A stretch of 64,000 bases of DNA. Origin: an uncultured delta proteobacterium (lineage in GTDB: Bacteria > Desulfobacterota > Desulfuromonadia > Desulfuromonadales > BM103). The stretch covers positions 32,001 through 96,000 of the forward strand of contig CAVQRZ010000005.1 of assembly GCA_963715335.1 (NCBI GenBank), read 5' to 3'. Position numbers and translations under genes: made by a program. Below, one piece after another: positions 21,026-57,566 of the stretch; within the stretch, counting starts at the first letter, position 1; every line of letters starts with the position of its first letter. The notes under the pieces were generated by a model that saw only the letters and a list, made by a program, of their open reading frames with translations, was not told the DNA's origin and ran no database searches.

Positions 21026-21135
21026 AAAAAAAAGCCCCACGGTTCAGGAGGTAGAGAACCGTGGGGCAAATATTTCTTTTTAGGAGGTTTTGAAGAAGTT
21101 GTCTCTGGCCTGCCTGCCACAGCAGGCCTTTGATG
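21026..21135 (-). ncRNA. Candidate anti-SD (CCUCCU) small RNA 1
   Basis: Minus strand: ggcctgc..gcaggcc hairpin, ACUUCUUCAAAACCUCCUAAAAAGAAA, terminator gccccacggttc-UCUACCUCCU-gaaccgtggggc-U8; similar to 39880-39973; 5' end uncertain. Confidence 0.55.
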
Positions 21136-21419
21136 ATTGTTACTCTATCGAAGATATCAAAGGGAATAAACGTGGAGACTCGTATAATATCGATCGTAAC
21201 CTCACAAAACCCTACTGTGCATAACCACACTAAATCAATTGGTTCTGTTCGTTAATTGAGCTGATTTGAATCAAAAACAGAGCCTTCTGGTGTGCCCTTG
21301 TTCTTATTTTACGTTAATAATAGAGATTCGCCCCCTGTGTCAGCGTAGTTGTCGCCTGTAACTGAACTCAACAAGATTGGGGGCAGTCAAACTTACAGAG
21401 GCGCATAATTCTTACCGAG

Positions 21420-21487
21420 CCAGACAAATGGGCAAGCCACCCGTTTAAGGTGGACAAGCTTTTCAGAGCCGCTCTCTATAACGACAG
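21420..21487 (+). repeat. Degenerate ~100-bp repeat, copy 1 (internally deleted)
   Basis: ccagacaaatgggcaagccacccgtttaaggtggac...ctctctataacgaca. Confidence 0.5.
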
Positions 21488-21589
21488 ACAGAGGGGAGGA
21501 TTCAGTGGATTGTTGTTTCAGCGATGTTGTTGTCTCTGGTAAAATTCAAATACTTATTACTCCCCTCTGCGAAAAGGAAGGGTTCCTTT

Positions 21590-22006
21590 ATGCACAAGCA
21601 CTTATGGATTGGCCTGTTGGCTGTAGCATCGTTGTCACAACCGTCGATGGCTCCAGCCGTCGAAATTATAAAACCTGGGCTGTGGGAAATCATTACTAGC
21701 ATTGAGATCCCCGGGATACCATTTCAACAACCACCACAGACAGTGCGACATTGCGTCACTCCGCAGGAAGCTAAAGAACCTGAAAAATATCTGCCGCTAG
21801 GAAAAGACTGTAAGATCATCGACCTCAGGGCCTCTGCGACCAAGGTCAACTGGAAAGGGGAGTGCACCGGAGAGATCTCAGGCAAGGGCGAGGGGGAGGT
21901 CGAATACAAGAGTGATTCATCCTACGAAGGGATAACTAAGATTCAGACCCAAGGACTGATCTTTAACATGAAACACAAAGGGACGCGGGTCGGGGAATGT
22001 CCCTAA
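21590..22006 (+). CDS. DUF3617-like secreted protein
   Basis: Signal peptide, KPGLWEI, conserved Cys pattern, C-terminal GTRVGECP; AAGGAAGG RBS. Confidence 0.75.
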   Translation: MHKHLWIGLLAVASLSQPSMAPAVEIIKPGLWEIITSIEIPGIPFQQPPQTVRHCVTPQEAKEPEKYLPLGKDCKIIDLRASATKVNWKGECTGEISGKGEGEVEYKSDSSYEGITKIQTQGLIFNMKHKGTRVGECP

Positions 22007-22030
22007 GTTGGGCTTACAGATTATTAAATC

Positions 22031-22131
22031 TCCTGACAAATAGGAAAAGGTCACCCGTTTCAAGATGGCTTTCATCACGTGTATTGAAGAGCTTCCCAAT
22101 TGTCTCTATCAATAAGAAACTGTTTTTCGTC
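22031..22131 (+). repeat. Degenerate ~100-bp repeat, copy 2
   Basis: tcctgacaaataggaaaaggtcacccgtttcaagatggc...gtattgaagagc...tgtctctatcaataag...gtttttcgtc. Confidence 0.8.
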
Positions 22132-22237
22132 TTATAACCAGGGGGTTATGGGATTCGCCAAGAATATGGCAAGACTGTCTGGTGAATCTTGAAGAGTTTA
22201 TTTTTCGTAAAACATTTCCCTGACGGCTTGATTAACC

Positions 22238-23119
22238 ATGAATCCTCCATTTCCTGACCTTGGTCCCAAGATGTCCCGTCAAGCCGTTGGCTGGCTTGCT
22301 GTTTTCGGCTCAGCCTTTTTTTTCTATCTGGCCACTCTTATCATTCGTTGGTCTGCGAATCATGTAACCATTGGTTCTGCATATTTTGTTTTTGCACGCT
22401 TTCTGCTCGGCTTCGTCGTCGTTTCCGTATCCATGGTTGTGCAGAAGCAAAAGTTGCAACCCAAAAGATCCCATTTTCTTGTCGGCCGAATGGTAGCAAA
22501 TACCGTTGCTGTGTTCTGCTTTTACAAAGCAGTAGAGATGGGGGCGTTGGCTGAGGCCAATATCCTTAATATGACTTATCCTCTTTTTGTTGCGGTTTTC
22601 TCGTGGTTTTTTCTTAAGGGTCAACGCGACTTGTTCTCATCGATGATTGTCATGCTGGCCTTTGTCGGCGTCTGGTTGGTCCTTGCGCCGGGCGGCATCA
22701 GCTTCAGCCAAGCAAATCTGTGGGGTCTCGGCTCCGGGATAACAGCTGCAGTTGCGGTTCTTTACCTCAATATAAGCAGGCGCTACCACGACTCGCAGAC
22801 CATCTTGTTTTTTATGTTTGGGCCAGGCATGGTGATGATCCTGATATTCTTTCACAACGCCATCTTTTTGCCGAATGGCGAGGAGTTATTTTATCTGCTC
22901 AGCTGTTCGGTTGCTGGTGTGCTTGGTCAGTATTTATTCACTTATGGGTTTCTCTATGTCACTGCCGTGGAAGGCTCCATTATCTCTTCCAGTCGGATAC
23001 TGCTGGCAGCCCTGTTTGGACCATTATTAGTAGCAGACCCGGTACTGACAGTTTCAGGTTGGTGTGGAGCGTTGCTTATCTTTACTGCCAATGCGGCACT
23101 TGCTTTAAGGAGAGCTTGA
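22238..23119 (+). CDS. DMT/EamA family transporter
   Basis: About ten TM helices in two repeats; FARF, YPLFV. Confidence 0.85.
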   Translation: MNPPFPDLGPKMSRQAVGWLAVFGSAFFFYLATLIIRWSANHVTIGSAYFVFARFLLGFVVVSVSMVVQKQKLQPKRSHFLVGRMVANTVAVFCFYKAVEMGALAEANILNMTYPLFVAVFSWFFLKGQRDLFSSMIVMLAFVGVWLVLAPGGISFSQANLWGLGSGITAAVAVLYLNISRRYHDSQTILFFMFGPGMVMILIFFHNAIFLPNGEELFYLLSCSVAGVLGQYLFTYGFLYVTAVEGSIISSSRILLAALFGPLLVADPVLTVSGWCGALLIFTANAALALRRA

Positions 23120-23445
23120 ACACGCCCGTTTTCGTCCTGGCAGTGGTGATCAGTAAGAAAATGTTTGCTCATCGTTACGTGATTATTGAAATTACATAGG
23201 TCGCTAATTTAGTCACGAGTGCATGGAGTTAACTCGAAAATGATATTAACATTGCGTTGACTTGAGTGTCCGTGATAAAGACCCTTATCTTAAACGTTTG
23301 TGCAGAGATAGTTTGTTGGACTAGATTAAATGTTAATCAGTCACGAATATGCCACGCAAACTTTTTACGGTTGCGTGTTTTTTATTTTTCAGCAGTTATG
23401 GTTGCACAACCAAGAGCGTTCTCACAGGGGGACAAGGAGGTAAAA

Positions 23446-23646
23446 ATGGCTGAAGGTACTGTAAAGTGGTTCAACGATGCAAAAGGTTTTGGGTTTATCG
23501 AGCAGGACAACGGACCGGATGTGTTCGTACACTTCTCTGAAGTCCAAGGCGACGGTTTCAAATCTCTTGCAGAGGGAGACAGAGTGAGTTTTGATGTGAC
23601 TAATGGCCAGAAAGGCCCTCAGTCGTCAAATGTACGCAAAATTTAA
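23446..23646 (+). CDS. Cold-shock protein (CspA family)
   Basis: [32 protein letters not shown] before the ATG at 23446. Confidence 0.97.
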
Positions 23647-23669
23647 GGTATGTATTTATCTTGATAAGC

Positions 23670-23702
23670 AAAAAAGCCTCGCGGGTTTCCGTGGGGCTTT
23701 TT
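23670..23702. terminator. Bidirectional intrinsic terminator after the csp gene
   Basis: aaaaaagcctcgcgg-gttt-ccgtggggcttttt. Confidence 0.8.
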
Positions 23703-23707
23703 ATTGC

Positions 23708-23818
23708 CCTGATACCTAAAAAATAAATCGCCCTCGGTTTCCCGGTGGCCATGTTTTTGTGTATTAAAGAGCGTCCTGGTTTGCTCAATCAATGACAAGC
23801 GCGTTTTTGTCTCGGCAG
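23708..23818 (+). repeat. Degenerate ~100-bp repeat, copy 3
   Basis: cctgata...cggtttcccggtggccatgtttttgtgtattaaagagcgtcc...tcaatgacaagcgcgtttttgtctcggcag. Confidence 0.75.
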
Positions 23819-24005
23819 GATTGACAAATAAAAACGGTTCACGGTTACCCATGAGCCGTTTGTTTAGTTGGTAATATCAACGAGACAATTTATTCTTTCC
23901 TTCGCCAACTGCAGGGCCATTCTGCCATGTTCCTTCAAACTCTGTTAAGCTGTAACGACTTTAGTACGTAATCAGTATCCTAACAGCGAAACAGAGGAGG
24001 AAATT

Positions 24006-24110
24006 ATGGGCAAGGGCATGGATAGCAAGAAGTCGGAAAAAAAGGCTCCAGCTAAAAGCATGAAAGAAAAAAAGGCGGACAAAAAGGCCAAAAAGGCCGA
24101 GAAAAAGTAG
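24006..24110 (+). CDS. 34-aa lysine-rich small protein (below the ORF-track cutoff)
   Basis: GAGGAGG RBS 5 nt upstream; MGKGMDSKKSEKKAPAKSMKEKKADKKAKKAEKK*. Confidence 0.75.
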   Translation: MGKGMDSKKSEKKAPAKSMKEKKADKKAKKAEKK

Positions 24111-24272
24111 TCAGTGATGCGCGAGAGAGGCTTGGGTTAGAGGACACTCAAAAAAGCCCCTCTATATTGAGAGTCTCCGGCTTCGGGGACCACATAAGGA
24201 GGTAGCCTACGCCAATAAATGGATAAAAGTTAGCGACGTCATGATGTTCGAGTCAGTAGAAATTCCTATTTA

Positions 24273-24381
24273 TCCTGACAATTAGTAATAAGGCCACCCG
24301 TTTCCAGGTGGCCATCATTTTGTGGATTGACGAACGTCCGAAATGTCTCTCTCAATAACACGCCGGTTTTTCTATCGGCAG
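24273..24381 (+). repeat. Degenerate ~100-bp repeat, copy 4
   Basis: tcctgacaattagtaataaggccacccgtttccaggtggccatc...attgacgaacgtcc...tgtctctctcaataacacgccggtttttctatcggcag; 76 of 100 columns identical to copy 2 in a hand alignment. Confidence 0.8.
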
Positions 24382-24424
24382 TTGTGAGTTTATAGAGCAA
24401 CTCACTTCTCTACCAAGATAATAT

Positions 24425-25000
24425 TCAACCCTTTTTACCAGAAACACTCTTGATTCTGACTGGTCCTTGCTTCTCCGGACGTTTACCAATTTTATCGCGA
24501 TAATATTCCTCCAGAATTATGAAATCTGCATCAATATCACCGCTAGGTTCCAACATACGATCTATACCAATCCGTTTACTTGGATAGTCTATATACGCCA
24601 GAGCAATCGGTACGCCAGTTGCCAGGGCAATACGGTAAAAACCTTCTTTCCATTGTTTTGTCAGACTACGTGTCCCCTCCGGAGCGATTGCCATGACGAA
24701 TTGGTCGCGGCTCATAAAAATATCGATCACTTTTTTAAGAAAGCCGGTACTTCCCTGTCGGTCTACCGGGATGCCACCAATCGCCCTCATAATTGGCCCG
24801 AGCGGCCCCTTAAATAAGGTGTCTTTGCCAACCCAGTTAAAACGCAAGCCGCAAGCCCACATTCCCAGAAGCCCAAGAGGAAAATCCCAATTGCTGGTAT
24901 GCGGAGCACCGATCAGTACGAACTTGTCCCGAGGGGGAAGAGAGAAAGAGACCTGCCAGCCGAATGTCTTGAGTAGAGTCGTCGCGATAATTCTGAGCAT
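24425..25000 (-). CDS. Lysophospholipid acyltransferase (PlsC-like) family protein
   Basis: APHTSNWD (HxxxxD), GGIPVDR, APEGTRS. Confidence 0.9.
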   Translation of the reverse strand: MLRIIATTLLKTFGWQVSFSLPPRDKFVLIGAPHTSNWDFPLGLLGMWACGLRFNWVGKDTLFKGPLGPIMRAIGGIPVDRQGSTGFLKKVIDIFMSRDQFVMAIAPEGTRSLTKQWKEGFYRIALATGVPIALAYIDYPSKRIGIDRMLEPSGDIDADFIILEEYYRDKIGKRPEKQGPVRIKSVSGKKG

Positions 25001-25013
25001 AGGGTCGTATTCT

Positions 25014-25124
25014 ATCCGACGAAGAAGAAAATGGCCACTCGGGGTTGATCCAGATGGCCATGATTGTTTTGATTTGGGTGCGTCTTAAATCTCTCCATTA
25101 ACAACACGCAGGTTTTCGTCTCAG
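25014..25124 (+). repeat. Degenerate ~100-bp repeat, copy 5
   Basis: atccgacgaagaagaaaatggccactc...ccagatggccatgatt...cgtcttaaatctctccattaacaacacgcaggttttcgtctcag. Confidence 0.65.
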
Positions 25125-25468
25125 ATGTCTTGGTCCTGACACACACCCTGGAGTGATTCAGCGGAGTATCTATTAAGAAAGTCAGACAACAGTGTGGCTG
25201 GAATCGCAATGATAGATTGTTTCACTTCTGAGTGTGTCTCATGATTCTCTAAACTCTATTCTTAACAAGAGATGCCAAACTCCCTATTTTCATGTAGCGT
25301 CAAAGATCAGGCTAATCTTCAAGGGGAGAAGAATGGCCTGGGCGGCTTAAACAAATCCGAGGAAAAGGTCTCTTGGAACAGATATAAAGGACGGACGAAT
25401 CGACGCACCTGACTTGGCAAAGAGTGTGATTGCTTTTGCGTCAATGAATTTAGCACGTATTTAAGAGA

Positions 25469-26857
25469 TTACGAGCCTTCGGCCAAATTATATTTCTCCA
25501 TTTTGTAGCGCAAGGTTCCTCGTGGCAAATTGAGAAGGCGTGCCGTTTTCGCAACATTGCCACCGGTAATCACGACCGCCTGTGAGATCAGCTCCTTTTC
25601 CAGTCGACCGACGATCTCTTCGAACAGTACACCTTCCGGCGGAATCTGGTAGTCAAAGGAAGCCTCTGCCTTCGGTTTGCCTCCCCAGATCTCCCTCGGC
25701 AGGCAGTCCGGCGTGATCGTTTCCTGGTTATGCATGATACAGATGCGCTCTACTACGTTGCGTAGCTCACGTACGTTACCCGGCCAGTGGTACCGCATCA
25801 GAAGGTCGAGGGCCGGGCGTGAAACTTCCCGCACATTCTTGTGGAACGCCTTGCTGAAATGTTTGAGGAAGAAATCCAGCAGGGGCGGAAGATCTTCGCG
25901 ACGGTCTCGCAACGGCGCAACATGGATAGGGAACACGTTGAGCCGGTAGAACAGGTCCTCACGAAAATTCTTTCGTTCAATAGCCTCTTTCAATTCAAGG
26001 TTGGTGGCAGCCACAACACGGACATCAATATCAATATTCCTGCTCCCGCCCAGTCGACGGATTTTACGGTCTTCAAGTACCCTGAGCAGCTTAACCTGAA
26101 GATTCATGTCCATTTCACCGATCTCATCGAGAAAGATCGTGCCGCCGTTTGCCTCTTCAAAGAGACCGATTTTACGGTTTTTGGCATCGGTGAAAGCACC
26201 CCGCTCGTGGCCAAACAGTTCTGTTTCGAGAAGGTTGAACGGCAGGGAGCCACAGTTTATTTCGATGAAAGGTTTGCCATTGCGAGGGGACAACTGGTGG
26301 ATTGACTTGGCAACCAGTTCCTTGCCTGTCCCCGACTCACCGGTAATCAGGACCGTTGATGTCTCATGCTTGGCAACTTCCCGAATTTGTCGGTAGACCT
26401 GGGTCAGATGTGCACTGGAGCCGATCATGGTGTTGCTGCCCGGTAAATCCTTAGCCTGCGACCCTCGCCGCAATTGACGGACTTCACGACGCAGGTTCTG
26501 GGTCTCCAGGGCCAGTCGGACAATCAGGCGGATGGCATCTGCCTTGAATGGCTTTTTGATGTAATCGTATGCACCCATTTTCAGCGCTTCAACAGCACTC
26601 TCTACCGTGCCGTAACCGGTAATGATAATAACCAGGATTCCCGGATCGATCTCACGCAGGGCACGCAAGACATCCAGACCGCTCTGGGCACCAAGATTCA
26701 GATCGAGCAGGACCAGGTCGATATCCGAATCGCTGACCTCCCTGATAGCATCGTCACCATTATCTGTGGAGAGGGGATGATAACCATCTTCCTCGAGAAT
26801 TCTTTCCAGGTTTTCGCGGATGAAGGCCTCGTCGTCCACGATCAGGATACGTTCCAT
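25469..26857 (-). CDS. Sigma-54-dependent response regulator (NtrC family: REC-AAA+-HTH)
   Basis: ILIVDDE receiver, GESGTGKE Walker A, GAFTDA loop, FLDEIG, WPGNVREL, Fis-type HTH; start at MERIL. Confidence 0.95.
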   Translation of the reverse strand: MERILIVDDEAFIRENLERILEEDGYHPLSTDNGDDAIREVSDSDIDLVLLDLNLGAQSGLDVLRALREIDPGILVIIITGYGTVESAVEALKMGAYDYIKKPFKADAIRLIVRLALETQNLRREVRQLRRGSQAKDLPGSNTMIGSSAHLTQVYRQIREVAKHETSTVLITGESGTGKELVAKSIHQLSPRNGKPFIEINCGSLPFNLLETELFGHERGAFTDAKNRKIGLFEEANGGTIFLDEIGEMDMNLQVKLLRVLEDRKIRRLGGSRNIDIDVRVVAATNLELKEAIERKNFREDLFYRLNVFPIHVAPLRDRREDLPPLLDFFLKHFSKAFHKNVREVSRPALDLLMRYHWPGNVRELRNVVERICIMHNQETITPDCLPREIWGGKPKAEASFDYQIPPEGVLFEEIVGRLEKELISQAVVITGGNVAKTARLLNLPRGTLRYKMEKYNLAEGS

Positions 26858-27001
26858 GCTGAACCTCTCTGACTTGTCTCTGCGTAATCGACAGGAGCGT
26901 ATTTTAGTGACAAGCTGGATTTGTGGCAACAAGAATGGCCAGAAATGGCCACTTAATTTATTGGCTGCCGGTTTTCTGTTGGGAAGACTCTGACTGGGTG
27001 G

Positions 27002-29500: not shown

Positions 29501-29558
29501 GGCGGCAGTATAGCAGTTGGCAGAACGAAACGGATAGCCGGATATTGTGGCGGAGAGT

Positions 29559-29795
29559 TTAATTCATCAGGCGCGATGAACGCGGTATCTTTCTTGAGCG
29601 AATTGCAAGCGGCAACAGGTCCTGGTGCCTGACCAAGACCTCCTCAAAGCTGACCCCGTCACTGATAATCACATCCTGCGGGCTGAATACCGTGCGCGCA
29701 AAATGGCTGCCATCCGGACGGCTGAACACTTCAATCAGATATTTCCGCCCCTCGAAATCGCAGGTCAGTTGATGAACCAGTTCAATGTTATCCAT
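29559..29795 (-). CDS. 78-aa hypothetical protein
   Basis: MDNIELVHQL...DVIISDG; protein-like composition; preceded by a sigma-54 promoter-like site. Confidence 0.6.
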   Translation of the reverse strand: MDNIELVHQLTCDFEGRKYLIEVFSRPDGSHFARTVFSPQDVIISDGVSFEEVLVRHQDLLPLAIRSRKIPRSSRLMN

Positions 29796-29845
29796 AGCCG
29801 CCCACATCACACGCACAAGTTTGTCATGTATATGGCAGATACAGG

Positions 29846-29862
29846 AGCAAGCTTCGGGCCAA
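29846..29862 (-). promoter_or_regulatory. Sigma-54 (-24/-12) promoter
   Basis: Minus strand TTGGCCCGAAGCTTGCT = GG-N10-GC, close to the TGGCACG-N4-TTGCW consensus. Confidence 0.65.
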
Positions 29863-29955
29863 ACGGGAAATGGCTCAATCTTGCCGTTGAAACAAGGAGA
29901 CCTGCCCAAAAAACGTTAAAACGCGGGGGAGTATGCAGGAAAATGACGGAAACAG

Positions 29956-30924
29956 CTAGTGATTGCGGCTGATGATGTAATCCGCAAGCCGGAGCATGGC
30001 CTCTTTGGCCGGGCAATCGGAAAAACCGGAGAGATGCGCTTTGGCCGATTCGATCAGAACCTTTGCCCGTTCGCGGGTGTAGCCGATACCATCGTAGGAG
30101 TGAATCAGGTTGATGACGTACTGCAAGTCCTCATCCGGCAGGACTTCCTGTTCGACGATGGCTGCAATCTTCCGACGTTCCTCGCTTGTACAGTTTTTCA
30201 GGGTGTGTATGAGAGGCAGGGTTACTTTACCTTCCAGCAGGTCATGGCCGCACTCTTTGCCGAACTCTGCCTGGTCGGCGACATAATCCAGCGCATCATC
30301 CATAAACTGGAAAGCGATGCCAAGATCCATCCCATAGGCGGCCAGAGCTTCCTCCTCTGCCGGGGAGCAGTCACCCAGGATTGCGCCACTGCGGCTCGCA
30401 GCGGAAAGCAGGACAGCCGTCTTGTTTCGCACGACTTCAATATAGTGATCTTCGTCAAGCTCGACGTCGCTGGTACTGATTAGCTGCTGCACCTCGCCTT
30501 CGGCCATCTGGGTTGTGGCGTCAGAGAGAGTCCGCAGGACATCAAGATTTCCTTCACGCACCATGATCGAGAAAGACTTGGCAAAGAGGAAATCTCCGAC
30601 CAGGACACTGGCTTCGTTGCCCCAGACTGCGTTCGCGGAATCCTGGCCACGTCGCAAAACCGCGCTATCGACGACATCATCATGCAGCAGGGTCGCCGTA
30701 TGGATAAACTCAACCACGCTGGCCAACCCGATATGCGCGCTGCCCTGATATCCGGACAGTTGCGCACTGAGCAGCAACATCATCGGCCGCACACGCTTGC
30801 CACCACTGGCAAGCACGTATTCACCAACCTTGCGGATCAAAGGCACACGCGAGGTCAGATCCTCGCGAAACTGCTCCTCGACGCGACGAATGTCATCATT
30901 CAGCAATTTAAGGACAAAATCCAT
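29956..30924 (-). CDS. ispB: Polyprenyl (octaprenyl) diphosphate synthase
   Basis: GGKRVRP, LLHDDVVD..RRG, KTA, FQFMDDALD. Confidence 0.88.
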   Translation of the reverse strand: MDFVLKLLNDDIRRVEEQFREDLTSRVPLIRKVGEYVLASGGKRVRPMMLLLSAQLSGYQGSAHIGLASVVEFIHTATLLHDDVVDSAVLRRGQDSANAVWGNEASVLVGDFLFAKSFSIMVREGNLDVLRTLSDATTQMAEGEVQQLISTSDVELDEDHYIEVVRNKTAVLLSAASRSGAILGDCSPAEEEALAAYGMDLGIAFQFMDDALDYVADQAEFGKECGHDLLEGKVTLPLIHTLKNCTSEERRKIAAIVEQEVLPDEDLQYVINLIHSYDGIGYTRERAKVLIESAKAHLSGFSDCPAKEAMLRLADYIISRNH

Positions 30925-31185
30925 AATTATGGGAATCCGGAGGGAAAATTATCGCCCATCCTAATGAATTCTCGCGAAACATGTCAAAGCTTTTTTACCT
31001 GATCCAGCAAAGGCTGTGAAACCGTTGGTTGCGCTCGGGCCAGTTGGTCCTTCAATGCCATGATTTGACATCTCCGGGCTTCGAGTACCGGCGACAAGGA
31101 ACTGGTTTTGGCCGCCCTCCCTTAATGATTAAATGCATGGCAAACAACATCACGCAAGGCAAAAGCATTATTTTTTGCACGGGTA

Positions 31186-31214
31186 TTGACAAGGGCCTGA
31201 AGCTTACGTATAAA
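31186..31214 (+). promoter_or_regulatory. Sigma-70 promoter of the cco operon
   Basis: TTGACA-N17-TATAAA. Confidence 0.7.
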
Positions 31215-31306
31215 TGTTACCGTTTTTGTCTTGTTTAATTAGCCCTTGACAATCATCTGCCCAAACCTACACATTGGAACAAATTAACATGCATTCAGGA
31301 GGTGCC

Positions 31307-32723: not shown

Positions 32724-32725
32724 TC

Positions 32726-39879: not shown

Positions 39880-39973
39880 AAAAAAAAAGCCCCACAGCCA
39901 GGAGGGGACTGTGGGGCAACGGGTTCTATAGGGTTTTTCTTTAGGAGGTAGAACATGAAGAAAGTATGTTCTG
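39880..39973 (-). ncRNA. Candidate anti-SD (CCUCCU) small RNA 2
   Basis: Own promoter, 5' hairpin agaacat/atgttct, single-stranded ACCUCCU, terminator gccccacag-UCCCCUCCUGG-ctgtggggc-U9; no convincing ORF. Confidence 0.65.
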
Positions 39974-39979: not shown

Positions 39980-40007
39980 AGATTACCATTTTGGTCAGAT
40001 ATGTCAA
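39980..40007 (-). promoter_or_regulatory. Sigma-70 promoter of candidate sRNA 2
   Basis: TTGACA-N16-TAATCT with a TGn extended -10. Confidence 0.6.
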
Positions 40008-40027: not shown

Positions 40028-40118
40028 ACCACCCAAGCGCGAACCCGGGTGGCAAGGATCTCCTTGGCTGGAGAGTTTGTAAATATCTCTGTCAACAAGA
40101 AGCCGGTTTTTGTTGCGA
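40028..40118 (+). repeat. Degenerate ~100-bp repeat, copy 6 (most diverged)
   Basis: ccaccc...gggtggc hairpin, then tatctctgtcaacaagaagccggtttttgt. Confidence 0.5.
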
Positions 40119-42341: not shown

Positions 42342-42381
42342 AAAGCTCGCCCCGGTTCATCGGTGAACCGGGGCGAGCTTT
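42342..42381. terminator. Perfect 18-bp-stem hairpin
   Basis: aaagctcgccccggttca-tcgg-tgaaccggggcgagcttt. Confidence 0.75.
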
Positions 42382-42590
42382 TACCCGTCGAAGGAGGAGG
42401 GCGGGCTGATTAACTTTTGGGTGGCGGTTTGGCTGGGCTGCGCCCTGCCTTGAATTTTGGTCCCTGAAAGCCGCTTCAGGCGTCCTGCTCGATGGCAGGC
42501 TTGCTCACCACGCTTTACCCGGGATGTTTTCTTTTCAATGTTCTCGACGCTGCCAGACCGGATACCGCGCAACCCAAATTCTATTTGCCT
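42342..42590 (-). ncRNA. Candidate sigma-54-dependent structured RNA (sRNA or leader) with a CCUCCU loop
   Basis: Four small hairpins, the last with loop UCCUCCUUC, then the 18-bp hairpin; -24/-12 site upstream. Confidence 0.45.
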
Positions 42591-42600
42591 GTACTAAGGT

Positions 42601-42617
42601 TGCCAATCGCATGCCAA
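42601..42617 (-). promoter_or_regulatory. Putative sigma-54 promoter
   Basis: Minus strand TTGGCATGCGATTGGCA = GG-N10-GC. Confidence 0.5.
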
Positions 42618-45470: not shown

Positions 45471-45701
45471 ACCGCTGAGTCTACCAAGGGATCAACTAAC
45501 AAGCAAACGCTAAAAAACCCATGTCGACCAACTAGATTTTTTGTTACATAAGACACTGAAAATACAAAGAATAAGCCCTACATCTAGCGACATACGACTC
45601 GATGTCTGATGTCATCCCCATAATATTCGGCTATAAATACATCAAACGTTGTTAAGGCAATTGTGCCGAGAACAAAACACTTTTAACTCAGGAGGAAGAA
45701 C

Positions 45702-45971
45702 ATGAAGAAACTGGTAATCATCATGATGCTGCTGGCGTTCGTCGGTGTCAATGTTGCTATCGCAGCAGACAGCTACACCTACGAGAACAAGAAGGGTAAC
45801 GTTACTTTCGACCACAAGGCTCACCAGGACAAGGTGGGTGACTGTGCCAAATGCCACCAAGGCGAGCCGGCAAAAATTGCTGTCGACAAGGAATACGCCC
45901 ACTCGACTTGCAAAGACTGCCACAAGGACATGAACGGCCCGACCAAGTGTAACGACTGCCACAAGAAGTAA
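45702..45971 (+). CDS. ppcA: Periplasmic triheme cytochrome c7 (PpcA family)
   Basis: Signal peptide, GNVTFDHKAH, CAKCH, CKDCH, GPTKCNDCH; AGGAGG RBS. Confidence 0.92.
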   Translation: MKKLVIIMMLLAFVGVNVAIAADSYTYENKKGNVTFDHKAHQDKVGDCAKCHQGEPAKIAVDKEYAHSTCKDCHKDMNGPTKCNDCHKK

Positions 45972-45992
45972 CCTTAACTTACGCAATGCTGC

Positions 45993-46024
45993 AAAAAGGC
46001 CACCGGTTTTAAGGTGGCCTTTTT
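45993..46024. terminator. Bidirectional terminator
   Basis: aaaaaggccacc-ggttttaa-ggtggccttttt. Confidence 0.85.
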
Positions 46025-46070
46025 GTTCTTTGATTCCACTCCCAGGCAGCAACGAGTCCCAACTATCTAT

Positions 46071-46988: not shown

Positions 46989-47032
46989 CGTCTATACCTC
47001 CTGAAGGGCTGTCGTAGCCGTCCTTGCAACGC

Positions 47033-50478: not shown

Positions 50479-50526
50479 GGCAGGGGCCTCGTAGCGTCAA
50501 CATGGCATTGATTATCCTCGGCCCGA

Positions 50527-53500
50527 TTATATTCCAGGAAGGCGTCGCAAATCCACGGTATAAGGGAACTCTTCGTTCGGTTCTTCTTCAGGTGGCGTCA
50601 TCGGTCCTGTCGAACCAGTGATAGGCGTAAAAGTACCAAGTCCGACAAATGCGGGCGGGGCTGTCTGTACCGAACCCGGCTCAGCGCCAAGATCCCAGAA
50701 CCGGGTGATGCGACGGGCTTCGGCCTCAAAGGCATTGACCGGGAAGACGTCGTAACTGCGTCCTCCCGGGTGGGAGACGTGGTAGGTGCAGCCGCCGATC
50801 GCCTGGCCGCTCCAGGTGTCGACAATATTAAAGACCAGCGGCGAGTGCGGCTTGATCGTCGGATGCAGCGCCGAAGGCGGCTGCCATGCCCGGTAACGGA
50901 CGCCGACGACAAATTCGCCCTTGCGACCGGTGCTGCGCAAGGCCAGTCGCCGACCATTGCAGACCACGACGTGACGCAGTTCGGTCAGCCCATTGATCCG
51001 CAGTTGCAGCCGCTCTACAGAAGAGTCGACAAACCGGGCGGTTCCCTGGCTCCCCATCTCTTCACCAAGCACGTGCCAGGGCTCAATAGCGAAGCGCAGC
51101 TCGAGCTCCATGGCATCGATATTCACAGAACCGAAGTGCGGAAAGCGGAACTCGAGGAACGGTTCAAACCATTCCAGTTCAAACGGGTAGCCCGCCCGGT
51201 TCAGGTCAACCACTACTTCCCGCATATCCTCACGGACAAAGTGCGGCAGCAGGAACCGATCGTGGAGCTCCGTGCCCCAACGCACCAGATCGTGCTCATA
51301 GGGCTTTTCCCAGAACCAGGCCACCAGGGTACGCAGGAGCAGGTTCTGCACCAAGCTCATACGGGCGTGAGGGGGCATCTCGAAAGCACGCATTTCAACC
51401 AGGCCGAGGCGTCCCGAAGAGCTGTCGGGGGAGTAAAGCTTGTCGATGCAGAACTCGGCGCGGTGGGTGTTGCCGGTCATGTCGATCAAAAGGTTGCGCA
51501 GCAGCCGGTCAACCAGCCAGGGGGCAGGCACCTCCCCTTTCGGCATCTGCTGGAACGCGATTTCGAGTTCATAAAGCGCGTCATTGCGTGCCTCGTCGAC
51601 GCGCGGGGCCTGGCTGGTCGGGCCAATAAACATTCCGGAGAAGAGATAGGAGAGCCCCGGATGGTGCTGCCAGTAGGTGACCAGGCTGCGCAGCAGGTCG
51701 GGCCGTCGCAGCACCGGACTGTCGGCCGGGGTCGCCCCGCCGATCGTGATATGGTTGCCGCCGCCGGTTCCGGAATGGCGGCCGTCGAGCATGAACTTCT
51801 CCGTACCAAGACGGCTCTGACGGGCCTCCTCGTAGAGGATCGTGGTGTTGTCCACCAGTTCCCGCCAACTGGCCGCCGGGTGGATATTGACTTCGATGAC
51901 GCCCGGGTCAGGGGTCACAAGCAGGCGCTCCAGGCGATAGTCCCGCGGCGGCTCATAGCCTTCGATGACCACTGGCATGGACAACTCTGCAGCGGTCGCC
52001 TCAATCGTCGCTACCAGGTCCAGGTAATGTTCGAGCTTCTTCAGCGGTGCCATAAAAACATGCAGGCGGCCGTCACGAGCTTCGACGCAGAGTGCCGTGT
52101 GAGGGATCTTGATCAGAGCATCCCCGCGGCGCTCATCAGCGAGCGGTTGTTCGTGAACTTCCGGATGGGCCATCACCGGCTTTTCAACCTTGCTGTACCT
52201 TTTCGCGACTTCGCCATGGGCATCCTCAAGAACCGGCAAGGCTGCGAACTGGTCGTGCTCGGCGCTAACTTCCCGTTTCTCTGGAGCCTCCCATGGCAGT
52301 GAATCAAGCGGCAGGCGCAGGCCCATCGCTGATCCGCCCGGAATCAGGAACATCTGTCCCCGACGGAACTCCCAGGGGCCGCTGTACCAGCCGCCGCTTT
52401 TTGCGTCCCACTGTAGCGGCAGAGCATAGCCGGACGGCGTTCCGAGTCCCTTGTCCAGCAACTTGGCCAGATACTGGCGTTCAAGAGAGTCTTTGAGATC
52501 GACCTTGAGCGGGTCGACATTATCCGGCAGAGTACCCTCTTTCCACAGGTAATAGAAAACATCCTCATAGCCCGGCACCACCCGTCGCGGATCAACCCCA
52601 AGACGTCTCGCCAGTTCGCTGGCGAAGCGTTCGGCGTGCTCATGAGTTATGTCGTAACTCTTGGCAATATTGGCGAGCAACTCAGGGTTCTTCCACACCG
52701 GAACACCGTCCTTGCGCCAGAAACAGCCGTAAGCCCAGCGCGGCAGCTGTTCGCCGGGATACCATTTCCCCTGGCCGAAGTGCAGCAACCCACCACTGCT
52801 GAATGACTCACGTAGACGGCGGACCAGGTTGTTGGCCAACTCCCTTTTGTGCGGACCATCAGCCTTGGTGTTCCATTCATCACCTTCCATATCATCGATC
52901 GATACGAAAGTCGGCTCACCGCCCATGGTCAGGCGGACATCTCCGCTGGTCAGGTCGGCGTCGACCTGCTCTCCCAGAGCATCAATCCGTGCCCATTGCT
53001 CATCGCTGTAGGGTTTGGTCACCCGCGGGTCTTCGTGGATACGCTTGACGCTGTTTTCGAAATCGAAGGTCACCTCGCACTTGTCCATAGAACCTGTAAC
53101 CGGAGCCGCACTGGAGTAATGCGGTGTACAGGCCAGCGGGATATGACCTTCTCCGGCAAGCAGCCCGGAGGTCGGGTCAAGTCCGATCCAGCCTGCACCG
53201 GGGATATAGACCTCGGCCCAGGCGTGCAGATCGGTAAAATCGACCTCGGTACCGGAGGGCCCGTCGAGCGATTTCTCATCGGCAGTCAGCTGGATCAGGT
53301 AGCCCGAAACAAAACGCGCCGCCAGCCCCAGATGGCGCAGGATCTGCACCAGCAGCCAGCCCGAGTCCCGACAGGATCCGATCTTCCGTTCAAGGGTCTC
53401 TTCGGCGGTCTGTACCCCGGGCTCCATGCGCACGGAGTAATTGACCGACTCGCGGACCATCTGGTTCAGGTTGACCAGGAAATCAACGGTCGTGGTCGGT

Positions 53501-53910
53501 GAACGATCGATCTTTTCCAGCCAGGCACTCAGCAGCGGTCCACTGTCGGTTATCTCGAAGTAAGGCGTCAGTTCCTTGCGCAATTGGGCTTCGTAAGTAA
53601 AAGGGATTTTCTCGGCAGATTCTTCAACAAAAAAATCGAACGGGTTGATGACGGTCATGTCGGCGACCACCTCGACCTCGATTCTCAGCTCGCGGGTCTT
53701 CTCAGGAAACACCAGCCGCGCCAGGTAGTTGCCAAAGGGGTCCTGCTGCCAGTTGAGAAAATGCGTATCGGGAGCGATGCGCATTGCATAGGCACGGATC
53801 GGGGTCCGCGAATGCGGTGCCGGCCGCAGGCGCAGGACGTGCGGCGAGAGGTTGATCGGCCGGTCAAAGCGGTAATGCGTGATGTGCCTGCAGGCAACGC
53901 GGATGGACAT
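50527..53910 (-). CDS. Transglutaminase fused to DUF2126 (putative amidoligase)
   Basis: GSCRDSGW, LHAW, LDPTS; LTMGGEPTFVS, TPDPGVIEVN, GTGGGNH, GNTHRAE. Confidence 0.9.
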   Translation of the reverse strand: MSIRVACRHITHYRFDRPINLSPHVLRLRPAPHSRTPIRAYAMRIAPDTHFLNWQQDPFGNYLARLVFPEKTRELRIEVEVVADMTVINPFDFFVEESAEKIPFTYEAQLRKELTPYFEITDSGPLLSAWLEKIDRSPTTTVDFLVNLNQMVRESVNYSVRMEPGVQTAEETLERKIGSCRDSGWLLVQILRHLGLAARFVSGYLIQLTADEKSLDGPSGTEVDFTDLHAWAEVYIPGAGWIGLDPTSGLLAGEGHIPLACTPHYSSAAPVTGSMDKCEVTFDFENSVKRIHEDPRVTKPYSDEQWARIDALGEQVDADLTSGDVRLTMGGEPTFVSIDDMEGDEWNTKADGPHKRELANNLVRRLRESFSSGGLLHFGQGKWYPGEQLPRWAYGCFWRKDGVPVWKNPELLANIAKSYDITHEHAERFASELARRLGVDPRRVVPGYEDVFYYLWKEGTLPDNVDPLKVDLKDSLERQYLAKLLDKGLGTPSGYALPLQWDAKSGGWYSGPWEFRRGQMFLIPGGSAMGLRLPLDSLPWEAPEKREVSAEHDQFAALPVLEDAHGEVAKRYSKVEKPVMAHPEVHEQPLADERRGDALIKIPHTALCVEARDGRLHVFMAPLKKLEHYLDLVATIEATAAELSMPVVIEGYEPPRDYRLERLLVTPDPGVIEVNIHPAASWRELVDNTTILYEEARQSRLGTEKFMLDGRHSGTGGGNHITIGGATPADSPVLRRPDLLRSLVTYWQHHPGLSYLFSGMFIGPTSQAPRVDEARNDALYELEIAFQQMPKGEVPAPWLVDRLLRNLLIDMTGNTHRAEFCIDKLYSPDSSSGRLGLVEMRAFEMPPHARMSLVQNLLLRTLVAWFWEKPYEHDLVRWGTELHDRFLLPHFVREDMREVVVDLNRAGYPFELEWFEPFLEFRFPHFGSVNIDAMELELRFAIEPWHVLGEEMGSQGTARFVDSSVERLQLRINGLTELRHVVVCNGRRLALRSTGRKGEFVVGVRYRAWQPPSALHPTIKPHSPLVFNIVDTWSGQAIGGCTYHVSHPGGRSYDVFPVNAFEAEARRITRFWDLGAEPGSVQTAPPAFVGLGTFTPITGSTGPMTPPEEEPNEEFPYTVDLRRLPGI

Positions 53911-53944
53911 AAACTGAATAACTCCCTGGGAATCCGTCTGATGA

Positions 53945-54934
53945 TCAGATCCCTAGCTCTGTGATTGATCTTGCACGGCAGAGGTTGCCGAGGAAATCGA
54001 GAAGAAACGTCTCGAAAACAACTTTACTTACGTCATTCAGGCGGGTCTGCAAGTCGTCGATAAACTCGTGAAGGCCAATCGCCTTGATGTCGTCAATGGT
54101 CGTGTAATCGAGGTCTGCCAGCAGACGCCCGAGCGTCTTTTCAGCGCGGTTGGTAAAGCGGCCGCGCATGGTCCCCGAAATATTGCGCAGCGATAGCTCC
54201 GCGATAATCAGGCAATGGTGAATCGCCCGCGGGAACTCGGCGTCAAGCACCATGAACTCGATAATCTGGTCGGGAACAATCTGGCCATAATCCTTGCGAT
54301 ACATTTCGAAGGCGCTGGCTGAACGCAGGATCGACCCCCAGAGGATGTGATCGTAAGGCGTGCCGACATACTCTACTGAAGGCAGCAGAATAAAATACTT
54401 GACGTCGATGATCCGGGCGGTCTTGTCTGCCCTCTCGAGCATCCTGCCGAGCCGGGCAAACTGCCAGCCATCACCGTGAGTCATGGTGTTCTGCGACAGC
54501 CCGGTAAAGAGATGGCTGGCGAGCATGACTTCAACAAAGAATTCGTGCGGGAGTTCAATCCCACCGCTGTTACGTGAGGCCTCCTTGACGAGCAGGTAGA
54601 AGGTGTTGACCTGCTGCCACATCTCGGAGCTGATCCATTCACGTACCGAGCGGGCATTTTCCCTGGCCATCTGCAGGCAGGAAAGAATCGAATTGGGATT
54701 TCTGGTGTCGAATGTCAAAAACTGGACAACGTTCTCCTCGTTGAAATCGTCGTAGAATTTTTTGAACAGGTCTTCGTCGCCGGTCGTCACGATCAGCGGC
54801 TCCCACTGCTCGCCAACGCCGCTTGGCAGGTCAAGGATCATGTGATAGTTGGCGTCCATGATCCGCGCCACGTTTTCAGCCCGCTCGACATAGCGGGCCA
54901 TCCAGTACATCGATTCAGCAACACGGCTCAGCAT
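53945..54934 (-). CDS. Alpha-E domain protein
   Basis: [31 protein letters not shown]; the 3' end probably has one extra base. Confidence 0.9.
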
Positions 54935-56391
54935 GCGGCACCCCCTTCCATGACCGAACGGTCCTCGACCACCCAGGTATCCTTGCTGCCGCCGCCCTGG
55001 CTCGAGTTGACCACCAGGGAGCCCTTCTTCAACGCAACCCGGGTCAGGCCGCCGGGCATGACATAGATCTCCTCACCGTAGAGGATATAGGGGCGCAAGT
55101 CGACGTGCCGACCTTCGAAGTGATCGTCAATCAGGGTCGGCACCCGTGAGAGCGCGAGGGTCGGCTGGGCAATGTAATTGCGCGGATTGGCCTTGACCTG
55201 CTCGGCGTATTCGGCGCGCTCCTTCGAACTGGCGTGCGGCCCGACCAGCATGCCGTAGCCGCCCGACTCTCCGACTTTCTTCACCACCAGCTTGTCGAGA
55301 TTGGCCAACACGTGCTGCAAGTCCTTGTCGCGCCAGCAAAGATAGGTCTCGACATTATTGAGGATCGCGTCCTGGTCGAGATAGTAGCGGATCATCTCCG
55401 GGACATAGGCGTAGATGGCCTTGTCGTCGGCCACCCCGGTCCCCGGGGCGTTGGCCAGAGCGACGCGACCGGCGCGGTAGGCACGCATCAGGCCCGGGAC
55501 ACCGAGCATCGAGTCTTTGCGAAACACCTCCGGATCGATGAAATCGTCGTCGATACGCCGGTAGAGGACATCGATCGGTTTCAGACCTGCCGTCGTACGC
55601 ATCATGACACGGTCGTCAACCACCACCAGATCACTCCCCTCCACCAGTTCGATCCCCATCTGTTGAGCGAGGAAGGAATGTTCGAAGTAGGCCGAGTTGT
55701 AGACACCGGGCGTCCAGACCGCGACCACGGGTTTGTCACGGCGCGGCGGCGCGAGGAACTGCAGGAGCTCCAGTAGGCGGTTCGGGTAATCAACCACCGG
55801 CACGACGTGTGCGGCATCGAAGGCGCGCGGAAAGCTGCGTTTCATGACCACGCGGTTTTCAAGCACATAAGAGACACCCGACGGGCAGCGCAGGTTGTCT
55901 TCGAGCACATAGAACTGCCCGTCAGCGCCGCGTACCAGGTCGGTCCCGGTGATATGGCACCAGACGCCGCCCGGGGGATTGAGACCTATACATTCCGGGC
56001 GATAACCGCTCGCCGACAGGACCAGGTCCTTCGGGATGATGCCATCCTTGAGAATTCTCTGATCATGGTAGAGATCGTCGATAAAGAGGTTGAGAGCCTG
56101 GACTCTCTGTTTGAGTCCGGCCTCCATAACGATCCATTCGTTATGAGCGATAATGCGCGGAACAATGTCGAAGGGGAAAATCCGCTCCGTGCCCTGCTCA
56201 TCTCCGTAAACGCTGAACGTGATCCCCATCTGCAACAGGGCTTTCTCTGCCGACTGCTGGCGGCGCCGGAGCTCTTCAAGGGGCAATTCGTTGAATCGAC
56301 TGACCACGGCTTCAGTGCCGGGGCGAGGGCGCCCTTCCGCATCGAACATCTCGTCGTAGAAACCGTCGAGCGAATAATTTTCAAATTGCAT
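54928..56391 (-). CDS. Circularly permuted type 2 ATP-grasp protein
   Basis: [49 protein letters not shown]. Confidence 0.93.
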
Positions 56392-56618
56392 ACCGGGTCC
56401 TTTCGTTGGCAGGGGAATATGAAGGAGATAGCCTTACGATTCAAGCCTATTCTGTGTATTATCAAATATTTTCAGTTGTTAATGATTTTCTGTTTCAAGA
56501 TAATCAGGGTCGCAATTTGCTGCTTATTATACCATACTTGAAAAATCTGTGGAAGACGCCGGCGGCCGCCAGGCATTGCCGTGTTGCAGTGAATTCCCGC
56601 CGCGCATAGAATGGGGCC

Positions 56619-57257
56619 ATGAATTATCGCTATATCTTCTGGGACAACGATGGTGTGCTTGTCGATACGGAACGGTTTTATCTCCAGGCCAGCAGGGAAG
56701 CGCTCGCCAGGGTCGCCATTGAACTGAGCGACGAACAGTTCGCGGAGATTTCGCTGGCAGCGGGACGCAGCATCTTCGATCTCGCGGCCGGGTCCGGGGT
56801 CTCCGAGCAGTCAGTCACCGCTTTGAAAGAGTGGCGGGAAAAGCGCTATGCGAAACTTCTCTGGCAAGAGGACATTTCTCTCGACGGGGCAGCTGAGGTA
56901 CTGAATATGCTCCACGGCAGACTCGGCATGGCTGTCGTGACAAGCTCACGGAAGCATCACTTCGACATTATCCACAGCAGGACGGGTTTTCTGCCTTATT
57001 TCGACTTCTGCCTGACACGCGAGGACTACACCAACAGCAAGCCCTCAGCAGAACCGTACCAACTGGCCTTGAAACGCAGCGGGATTGAAGCAGGAGAGGT
57101 CCTCGTGATTGAAGATTCGCCACGGGGTTTGAGAGCGGCGAAAGCTGCCGGGCTGGCATGCTGGGTCCTGCCGGGACATCACACCTCAGGGCAGGATTTT
57201 GCCGAAGCCGACAGGATTCTCTCTGATATCAGGGACGTCATGGATATCACCTCGTGA
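56619..57257 (+). CDS. HAD-superfamily phosphatase
   Basis: DNDGVLVDTE, VTSS, KP, IEDS. Confidence 0.9.
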   Translation: MNYRYIFWDNDGVLVDTERFYLQASREALARVAIELSDEQFAEISLAAGRSIFDLAAGSGVSEQSVTALKEWREKRYAKLLWQEDISLDGAAEVLNMLHGRLGMAVVTSSRKHHFDIIHSRTGFLPYFDFCLTREDYTNSKPSAEPYQLALKRSGIEAGEVLVIEDSPRGLRAAKAAGLACWVLPGHHTSGQDFAEADRILSDIRDVMDITS

Positions 57258-57306
57258 GACATTCCAGACAGCTCACTTTTTTCTCACATTTTTCTCAAAA
57301 ATACTC

Positions 57307-57335
57307 TTGCCAAGAACTTTCTGCTTTGATATATT
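57307..57335 (+). promoter_or_regulatory. Sigma-70 promoter of candidate sRNA 3
   Basis: TTGCCA-N17-TATATT with TGn. Confidence 0.6.
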
Positions 57336-57341
57336 TCAGCC

Positions 57342-57417
57342 AACTCTTCGATTGCCTGCAAGCCGAAGAGCTTTGGACCCCGCGTATCCCCCCCCTCCTT
57401 ACGCGGGGTCTTTTTTT
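57342..57417 (+). ncRNA. Candidate anti-SD small RNA 3
   Basis: Hairpin ctcttcg/cgaagag, then gaccccgcgta-UCCCCCCCCUCCU-tacgcggggtc-U7. Confidence 0.6.
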
Positions 57418-57466
57418 GTCTTTTGCCGTCGCACTGCGCTGTCCCTGTGTCATCCTCGATTTTCTC

Positions 57467-57495
57467 TTGACGGATCCCCAAAAATTTCTTAGGAT
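57467..57495 (+). promoter_or_regulatory. Sigma-70 promoter of candidate sRNA 4
   Basis: TTGACG-N17-TAGGAT. Confidence 0.6.
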
Positions 57496-57501
57496 TCACT
57501 C

Positions 57502-57566
57502 ATGTTCCCCTGACAATGGTCAGGGCTTTTGCCCCGTGATTCCCCTCCTTCGCGGGGCCATTTTTT
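57502..57566 (+). ncRNA. Candidate anti-SD small RNA 4
   Basis: Hairpin ccctgac/gtcaggg, then gccccgtga-UUCCCCUCCU-tcgcggggc, then ca-U6. Confidence 0.6.

Follow-up and report, generated by a model that had tools for sequence, protein, structure and literature searches.

The stretch of DNA analysed here (the window) comprises 64,000 nucleotides (nt) of an uncultured delta proteobacterium of the order Desulfuromonadales, corresponding to C5:32001-96000 of a 3.3-Mb assembly with a completeness rating of 100% and a contamination of 6.87%. It carries four predicted small RNA (sRNA) genes, here designated types A, B, D, and E, each of which exposes CCUCCU in the loop of a terminator. In general, CCUCCU is the anti-Shine-Dalgarno (anti-SD) sequence of the 16S tail; as the end of the 16S gene was not found in this assembly, the anti-SD assignment follows this general rule. 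We consider it very probable that the four units are real sRNA genes. Their elements are as follows.

21026..21135 (-): B-type predicted sRNA of about 110 nt (predicted fold; A-type model E 9.9e-10)
21128-21107 (-): 5' hairpin of the B type, loop UGUGGCAG (predicted fold)
21100-21082 (-): linker seed of the B type, UUCUUC..CCUCCU (sequence)
21067-21034 (-): terminator of the B type, CCUCCU loop, then U tract (predicted fold)
21142..21234 (-): promoter of the B type, with a -10 (21147-21142) but no -35
21165-21234 (-): conserved tripartite element upstream of the B type, TGTGC-N4-GCACA, TTTCGTG, TACG-N8-CGT
39880..39973 (-): A-type predicted sRNA of about 94 nt (small 5' hairpin, seed, terminator, U tract)
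39966-39943 (-): A-type seed, complementary to SD, spacer, AUG, and AAG (sequence)
39917-39889 (-): A-type terminator, CCCUCCU loop (predicted fold)
39980..40007 (-): A-type promoter, -35 TTGACA at 40007-40002, 16-nt spacer, weak extended -10 at 39988-39980
39997-39983 (-): A-type operator TGAC-N7-GTAA, a conserved motif overlapping the promoter
57307..57335 (+): D-type promoter TTGCCA-17-TATATT with TG extension, spacing kept in relatives
57342..57417 (+): D-type predicted sRNA of 76 nt, single copy (5' hairpin and terminator)
57376-57410 (+): D-type terminator, 13-nt C-rich loop with CCUCCU (predicted fold)
57467..57495 (+): E-type promoter TTGACG-17-TAGGAT
57501..57566 (+): E-type predicted sRNA of about 66 nt (5' CAUG tail, co-varying hairpin)
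57531-57558 (+): E-type terminator, loop CCCCUCCU (predicted fold)

The original prediction had named five intergenic sites with CCUCCU unpaired in a predicted hairpin loop, and all five are found where it placed them, with fold z-scores of -4.5 to -5.9. The motif does lie in the loop of a GC-rich terminator followed by a U tract in four of them, and the terminators that had been called ordinary (6, 23670, 44471, 45993) have short loops that lack it. Near-consensus sigma-70 promoters had been claimed for three units; sigma-70-like sites are found at 57307-57335 and 57467-57495, but the promoter at 40007-39980 has a weak extended -10 that a promoter scan missed, and the unit ending at 21135 shows only a -10 and the conserved upstream element. 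An open reading frame (ORF) of 111 codons at 57254-57589 overlaps both plus-strand units, but relatives carry indels that break its frame. Paralogues of the B type lie on contigs C15, C19, and C28. Its 5' hairpin loop, UGUGGCAG(GC), is kept across families (loci L004, L056, L070, L402-L412) and is tandem-doubled in some copies; it may be a second recognition motif. A conserved terminator-like hairpin at 40028-40053 (-) and a shared upstream stretch precede the A promoter here and in many relatives (L014, L016, L024, L053, L065), and this hairpin may mark where a neighbouring element ends, or a site at which insertion is favoured.

As a bare word, CCTCCT shows no enrichment in the window (38 occurrences against 33.3 expected). 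Among 891 terminator-like hairpins of the genome, on the other hand, it is unpaired in 13 and AGGAGG in none, and the loops of 460 strong intergenic terminators hold CCTCC 19 times against twice for GGAGG. The 19 loops exceed both null expectations, with means of 0.9 when loop letters were pooled (maximum 5 in 1000) and 5.4 when each loop was shuffled (maximum 11 in 1000), so that CCTCC is enriched in terminator loops. These loops are not independent events because many are paralogues; even so, the CCTCC loop sits on at least seven different stems in the genome. Hairpins with a central CCTCC are mostly found away from a same-strand stop codon (22 of 25, against 231 of 435 other hairpins).

We count 19 units of the family in the genome. 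Two pairs of these (the C15 and C28 copies) lie on contigs that are 89-92% identical over kilobases and may be strain duplicates, in which case the count would drop to 17; contigs C15 and C28 share kilobase stretches of 89-99% identity, likely strain duplicates behind the contamination figure. Left out of the count are four weaker or intragenic hairpins (C1 285725, C5 177468, C30 16820, C34 1611) and the terminator of C30_60, a second c7 cytochrome gene (gene identifiers of this form are the output of our own simple gene caller). The loop of that terminator (C30:59635-59656 (-)) consists of C and U only, and an origin of the family in a 3' untranslated region, or mimicry of the family, is possible. 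One terminator is common to subfamilies A (five copies), B (five), C (two), and G (one), and carries different promoter modules. D and E are single-copy with stems related to, yet distinct from, the shared one, and F, H, I, and J are four further single units. Homology among the A copies is restricted to promoter and RNA, ending at the promoter on one side and the terminator on the other, with unrelated flanks and neither terminal repeats nor common flanks outside the cassette. A larger mobile element carrying the A copies was rejected, as homology is confined in this way. On a sequence basis, there are several homologous stand-alone genes with exposed anti-SD motifs, as in sibling anti-SD sRNAs, and the units are likely to encode 65-115-nt trans-acting sRNAs from multicopy promoter-to-terminator cassettes of Desulfuromonadales.

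The range of the family is that of the order. A GTDB-wide scan with the pattern of the shared terminator returned 100 loci, 90 of them in assemblies titled Desulfuromonadales, Geobacteraceae, or deltaproteobacterial, and the exact pattern occurs in 20 of 24 genomes of the same family against one of 16 other genomes, while D is found in all 24 of the former. Two full copies of the sRNA family (L078, L081) come from assemblies that bear the titles Nitrospinaceae and Shewanella; they lie there on short contigs and are probably mis-binned Desulfuromonadales DNA. Covariance models were searched in 75 Desulfuromonadales and 75 sister-order genomes, at E 0.01 for the E type and E 0.001 for the A and D types. 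Matches were obtained in 60 against six genomes with the E model, 52 against none with the D model, and 33 against four with the A model; the models cross-hit each other, so these are counts of the superfamily. The copy number of A, B, and C runs from 1 to 26 per genome, and the A model matched 23 and 26 times in two relatives, among 28 candidates scored. The proposed check in relatives thus gave an order-wide range, co-varying stems, and fixed loops, and the range first suggested, Desulfuromonadia, holds for Desulfuromonadales, not for the whole class.

Co-variation is clearest in the single-copy types. In 20 D sequences, 99.7% of alignment cells are paired, with four double-change pairs and nine such cells, a result reached by none of 500 shuffles, although the alignment of the 5' hairpin is poor for the three sequences furthest removed. 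In 14 E sequences there are six double-change pairs in 12 cells (0 of 500 shuffles). The loops of both remain pyrimidine-only while their stems co-vary. The 5' hairpin of A is weakly supported, with 87.8% paired and double-change pairs equalled by 38 of 500 shuffles. The D-E tandem is found here and in several other families, and at 15 of 29 loci the D gene follows, no more than 1.5 kb downstream, a gene for a small cytochrome with three or four hemes; in this genome the two are about 11 kb apart. Among the metatranscriptome runs listed, 20 of 23 contain a small share of 57200-57700. Metatranscriptome contigs of relatives span homologues of D, E, A, and the 42342 unit described below; they are unstranded, of low depth, and extend into promoter and flank, and coding genes are likewise spanned. 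On comparative evidence, the sRNAs would be transcribed and would control translation.

The linker of the A type is conserved as UUCUUCAU-N4-6-ACCUCCU, the complement of an SD, a spacer, AUG, and AAG, and both A and B keep UUCUUC(AU) beyond the anti-SD, complementary to AUG-AAG-AA. In some A copies the CAU of the seed is CGU, which keeps a G-U wobble with AUG while losing the antisense start codon. When accessibility was included, the A seed of the window ranked the gene of an octaheme HAO-like cytochrome (C22_24) first and a c7 cytochrome gene within the window second of 2982 start regions. The latter is the following feature.

45702-45971 (+) (row 45689..45971): triheme c7 (PpcA-like) cytochrome gene, predicted trans target through A-seed pairing

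Pairing between the A-type seed and the start region of this gene, 45689-45713, is predicted at -31.5 kcal/mol. Among the 30 best-ranked starts, exported CxxCH proteins number four to five with four of the A seeds and three with the fifth, against 28 of 1675 SD-bearing starts overall; they include a GSU2204-family protein and a PccH-family cytochrome. The best A energies are -33.8 and -30.3 kcal/mol, whereas the best among 40 shuffled seeds that keep CCUCCU is -29.9 kcal/mol. The start of the octaheme orthologue falls within the top 5% in eight of 12 genomes, with the present genome as background. The genome also contains hfq, one of the genes whose presence it had been proposed to check. In our estimate these RNAs are probably repressors that pair with the ribosome-binding site (RBS), and it is tentatively proposed, with somewhat less than even confidence, that cytochromes are among the main targets of A.

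The A promoters also point to a regulator. They carry TTGACA, followed by TGAC-N7-GTAA with AT-rich flanks across the -10. With a matrix built from 58 sites in the sRNA promoters of relatives, 22 places in this genome score above 11 bits, all intergenic: seven at sRNA promoters (five A, F, and G) and 15 others. The hits outside sRNA promoters include genes for a peroxiredoxin, two metallo-beta-lactamase-fold hydrolases, malate synthase, a thioredoxin-like, and a DsrE-like protein, as well as yceI, feoAB, and ccoN. The A operator, which we take to resemble the IscR type 1 consensus, prompted a test of the Rrf2 proteins, and the box is found just downstream of the -10 of C19_131, alone among the three Rrf2 genes of the genome. 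IscR proper (C23_123, in a cysE-iscR-iscS-iscU cluster) and a cysK-linked Rrf2 protein were rejected as regulators of A, as their promoters lack the box.

31212..31236 (strand not assigned): A-type operator copy upstream of the cbb3-type oxidase (ccoN) operon (matrix hit)
C19:133822-134262: gene of the three-cysteine Rrf2 protein C19_131 (orthologue loci L272-L301)

C19_131 has three conserved cysteines and passes only the cut-off of the Rrf2 superfamily. The box lies in the promoters of 18 of the 26 orthologues that could be parsed (four of 30 loci could not), compared with 78 of 2973 genes. Orthologues occur in 41 of 41 Desulfuromonadales and in none of five sister-order genomes (E 1e-30), a range that matches that of the sRNAs. 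We dropped an identification of C19_131 with GSU1639 of Geobacter sulfurreducens (PMC7726332), since no close orthologue exists in any of the five sister-order genomes. In this genome C19_131 lies directly upstream of a nine-heme cytochrome gene. RisR, an iron-sulfur (Fe-S) Rrf2 repressor of Myxococcus, is described as binding over its promoters, at a core of GAC-N7-GTC between AT-rich flanks (PMC9973013), and holo-IscR as repressing through type 1 sites (PMC4055776). As with these Rrf2 operators of the IscR/RisR type, a palindrome resembling GAC-N7-GTC lies between AT-rich flanks over the A promoter, and the box is present at the gene of the regulator itself. C19_131 is thus apparently autoregulated, and it is quite probable that subfamily A is controlled by this protein, whose binding is predicted. 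Of 14 A-model loci beyond the bacterial family, 11 retain the box, among them copies that have a B-type 5' hairpin, so that exchange of promoter and RNA modules has taken place.

Judging from the co-regulated genes, A more likely responds to oxygen or oxidative stress than to a shortage of iron. The promoters of B and C are built differently, lacking a -35 and bearing a 70-bp tripartite element. A matrix from 18 copies of this element in relatives finds nine sites in the genome, seven of them at sRNA genes; the element may serve a putative private activator. Of the remaining two sites (C14:112915 and C5:211132), one precedes a lipoprotein gene whose B-type leader has decayed, and one a transposase-like gene.

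We therefore propose, as a working model, that each subfamily would be switched by its own regulator. The CCUCCU of the terminator loop or linker would make the first contact with AGGAGG, possibly with the help of Hfq, and the linker of A and B would extend the pairing over the start codon and on to AAG, the typical second codon of 'MKK' signal peptides, so that the target set would be biased to exported proteins. C19_131 would repress A through TGAC-N7-GTAA over the -10; loss of its Fe-S cluster under oxygen, oxidative, or iron stress would release A together with the peroxiredoxin, YceI, and the cbb3 oxidase, and the released A RNAs would lower the synthesis of heme-rich periplasmic cytochromes. 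The model as a whole, sibling translational repressors with A released on inactivation of an Fe-S repressor, seems to us rather likely. Its most far-reaching form is an order-wide modular sRNA layer, with as many as about 26 copies in one genome, where an Fe-S Rrf2 repressor and not Fur frees RNAs that read the SD, the start codon, and the first signal-peptide codon as a single address and thereby halts the synthesis of periplasmic multiheme cytochromes under oxygen or iron stress; this we consider unlikely, if worth pursuing. If true, it would constitute a heme-sparing switch between anaerobic metal respiration, with its extracellular electron-transfer chain, and defence against oxygen.

Several observations weigh against this proposal. 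The invariance of the A terminator stem was partly imposed by the search pattern that fixed it. The start of the c7 orthologue falls within the top 5% in only six of 15 genomes, target starts are not conserved letter for letter, and the c7 spacer varies among relatives. Seed-target co-variation was looked for among pattern-matched copies only (80 places) and was not found: seeds and targets from one genome did not outdo those from different genomes (c7, p 0.61; octaheme, p 0.20). The c7 gene was accordingly rejected as a fixed, exclusive partner, as its spacer is unconserved and co-variation is absent. Because ranks vary among relatives and matched pairs do no better than mismatched ones, the A seed would therefore address a class of start regions rather than one co-evolving partner. 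The heme enrichment of the A seeds rests on four to five genes, and the seeds of B, C, D, and E show none (0-1 in the top 30). The bias to heme and exported proteins comes partly from the seed itself, since 45 of 71 MK[KR] starts are signal-like. Targets predicted from the loop alone are weak and unspecific, and all gene starts used are those of the simple caller. The site of C19_131 itself scores 6.0 bits, just over the 99th background percentile of 5.4 and under the 11-bit cut-off. The feoA box lies upstream of the -35 and is present in five of eight loci, for which reason iron limitation is weakly supported as the signal.

Some of these points would suit broad dampers of translation, in which many mimics of the 16S tail titrate strong SD sites, or bind a ribosomal or other protein, and have no defined cytochrome targets. 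CCUCC(U) alone is invariant across all subfamilies, D and E are without a long seed, two relatives hold 23-26 copies, seeds and targets do not co-vary, and the loop seeds rank targets poorly. The 'toxic small RNAs' of Burkholderia are likewise described as multicopy and expressed, with a function unknown (PMC4603805). Such dampers, however, would not require A and B to keep UUCUUC(AU), the complement of AUG-AAG-AA, beyond the anti-SD, nor a different promoter for each subfamily, nor a single-copy D that is often beside a small cytochrome gene, and we regard this explanation as improbable.

It is possible to read the dispersal of A, B, and C, with 1-26 copies per genome and a near-identical terminator, as that of selfish or passively copied repeats without RNA function, akin to miniature inverted-repeat transposable elements (MITE) or repetitive extragenic palindromes (REP). 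The cassette has no terminal repeats or common flanks, however, operator and seed are conserved, and D and E are single-copy, syntenic, and co-varying across families, which makes such repeats very improbable. Slightly less probable still is an action in cis, whereby a CCUCCU reached by read-through would insulate the RBS of the next gene or the cassette would be merely an unusual terminator. CT-rich motifs have been reported as insulators of downstream genes in sigma-54 promoters (bioRxiv 10.1101/086108), but here the next gene lies on the same strand in nine and on the opposite strand in ten of the 19 units, each terminator has its own promoter 65-115 nt ahead, and the flanks are unrelated. 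That the opposite strand is functional, as a small-peptide mRNA (a type I toxin-antitoxin pair) or as a sponge for CsrA with GGA loops, has next to no likelihood: the reverse of the A seed does read SD, six bases, and ATG AAG, but in 51 of 60 copies the antisense ORFs vary between 3 and 56 codons and share no frame, and the other nine gave no start, so that a conserved small antisense ORF is not seen, promoter and U tract face the CCUCCU strand, and neither GGA loops on the transcribed strand, as in CsrB/RsmZ, nor csrA in this genome of 100% rated completeness was found.

The fifth unit, 42342-42590, had been taken for one of the same kind, and here the original prediction fails: the hairpin that holds its CCUCCU is weak and is followed by a long terminator of its own, while the body of the unit is related to 6S RNA. 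The sibling anti-SD reading thus stands for the four units, given their cassettes, co-variation, order-wide range, and hfq, and not for this one. Its parts are as follows.

42343..42617 (-): diverged 6S paralogue unit, body about 42577-42415, 6S core about 42512-42465
42617-42601 (-): sigma-54-type promoter GG-N10-GC, conserved in relatives
42406-42385 (-): hairpin with CCUCCUCCU (predicted fold)
42382-42343 (-): long terminator of the 6S paralogue (predicted fold)

The unit finds matches in 34 of 41 genomes, chiefly by a 45-nt core that is the apical part of 6S RNA. The genome has two 6S genes (C22:62535-62716, C25:148745-148925), one above the RF00013 gathering score and one just below it, and global alignment of the unit with them scores 102 and 95 against shuffle maxima of 85.5 and 76.4 (n = 200). 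Three of eight core-bearing loci score as 6S above gathering. RF00013 gives no score for 42342-42590 itself, and its minimum-energy fold is branched and not a rod with a central bubble. The GG-N10-GC promoter precedes the unit in the window, in five relatives (L203-L207), and, in another family, at the locus L214, which is 6S-like (32.9 bits) and has a CU-rich stretch at its end as well; rpoN is present in the genome. A sigma-70-like site overlaps the unit as well, with a less well kept -10. The unit is best taken for a diverged 6S paralogue with an anti-SD tail, probably sigma-54-driven. It shares with 6S RNA (RF00013) the apical core of about 45 nt and a body of about 165 nt closed by a terminal stem, and differs in its sigma-54-type promoter, its CCUCCUCCU tail, and its place as a third paralogue in the genome. 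As a third 6S-related RNA it is a possible regulator of an alternative holoenzyme.

Two further observations concern the window at large. Several short ORFs at 8398-12350 resemble, by eye, fragments of a transposase and of a heavy-metal P-type ATPase, and a cspA gene with its leader lies at 23243-23703 (+), where the cspA thermoregulator model scores 47.5 against a gathering score of 78 bits.

Taken together, what appears to be real is an uncatalogued, order-wide superfamily of predicted anti-SD sRNAs. The proposal of such a system is supported for four of the five units on comparative evidence, and its extent was understated, as it has 19 units, several subfamilies, a seed for SD plus AUG, and an Rrf2-type operator. 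The strongest points are existence, range, structure, and the Rrf2 operator; the weakest are expression and targets. No earlier description of base-pairing sRNAs in Desulfuromonadales was found in the literature searched. With three models, coordinates, an operator and its candidate regulator, and candidate targets known by name, post-transcriptional control of cytochrome synthesis in these sediment bacteria can be tested directly.

Anti-SD pairing as a general mechanism is already known, and the comparison is with systems that use it. No Rfam family reaches its gathering threshold for the four units, in agreement with the novelty first supposed. The nearest scores are those of Pseudomon-1/ErsA (RF01719) with D (25.8 bits, gathering 50, E 0.72), anti-hemB (RF02837) with E (25.1 bits, gathering 49.5, E 0.12), and ncS54 (RF02871) with the B unit (20.6 bits, gathering 43, E 3.7), a weak resemblance of architecture only, consisting of a hairpin and a terminator and, in ErsA, a C-rich loop. 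Subscription papers aside, the literature searched holds no description of such sRNAs, and the available passages of PMC11109978, PMC3543383, and PMC2996986 do not describe the family; the supplement of PMC11109978, a Geobacter screening, may hold related motifs, and in the multicopy-sequence supplement for P. carbinolicus (PMC3543383) four motifs gave one unrelated match only.

The closest anatomy is that of LhrC1-5 of Listeria monocytogenes, multicopy siblings described as blocking the SD through CU-rich sites in linker and terminator loop (PMC4132741). Like the A and B types, the LhrC RNAs are about 110 nt long, with redundant CU-rich sites in linker and loop and one dedicated regulator. 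They differ in their Firmicute host, their UCCC motif, and their five near-identical copies under the LisRK two-component system, whereas the present family has up to 26 copies, several subfamilies, CCUCCU, a seed that reaches over AUG-AAG, and an Rrf2-type operator; LhrC has no Rfam match up to E 5 within the window. The cuckoo RNAs (cuckoo/CcsR/ar14/NfeR1) of Alphaproteobacteria are described as having two to four adjacent hairpins, each with CCUCCUCCC (PMC4615179), and resemble the present family in an anti-SD fixed in hairpin loops, stems that vary, and several copies per genome. The present units differ in that a single hairpin, the terminator, bears the motif, with a seed in the linker besides, and in that the 5' hairpin is without it; the four units, whose hosts are Desulfuromonadales, have no ar14 match, and only the 42342 unit scores at all (14.6 bits against a gathering score of 58.8). 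The D-E tandem resembles NmsR-A/B of Neisseria, tandem siblings reported to repress several mRNAs through anti-SD motifs (PMC5362039), which differ in phylum, sequence, control by the stringent response, and tricarboxylic acid cycle targets. The same source describes NrrF as a Fur-repressed iron-sparing sRNA.

A Fur box was not seen at the A promoter, as judged from the alignment without a Fur matrix, and the genome has two genes of the Fur family. RyhB and PrrF are Fur-repressed iron-sparing sRNAs, and the likeness of subfamily A to these and to NrrF would be that a metal-sensing repressor frees an sRNA that lowers the synthesis of iron proteins. Subfamily A differs from the RyhB type in its Rrf2-type box, its exported heme targets (predicted), and its co-regulated genes, which look to be of the oxygen or oxidative-stress kind. 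With more than 20 copies, promoter modules swapped on one terminator, a seed for 'MKK' starts, and a sparing RNA under the control of an Rrf2 protein and not of Fur, the system proposed here would extend what is known of sibling sRNAs.

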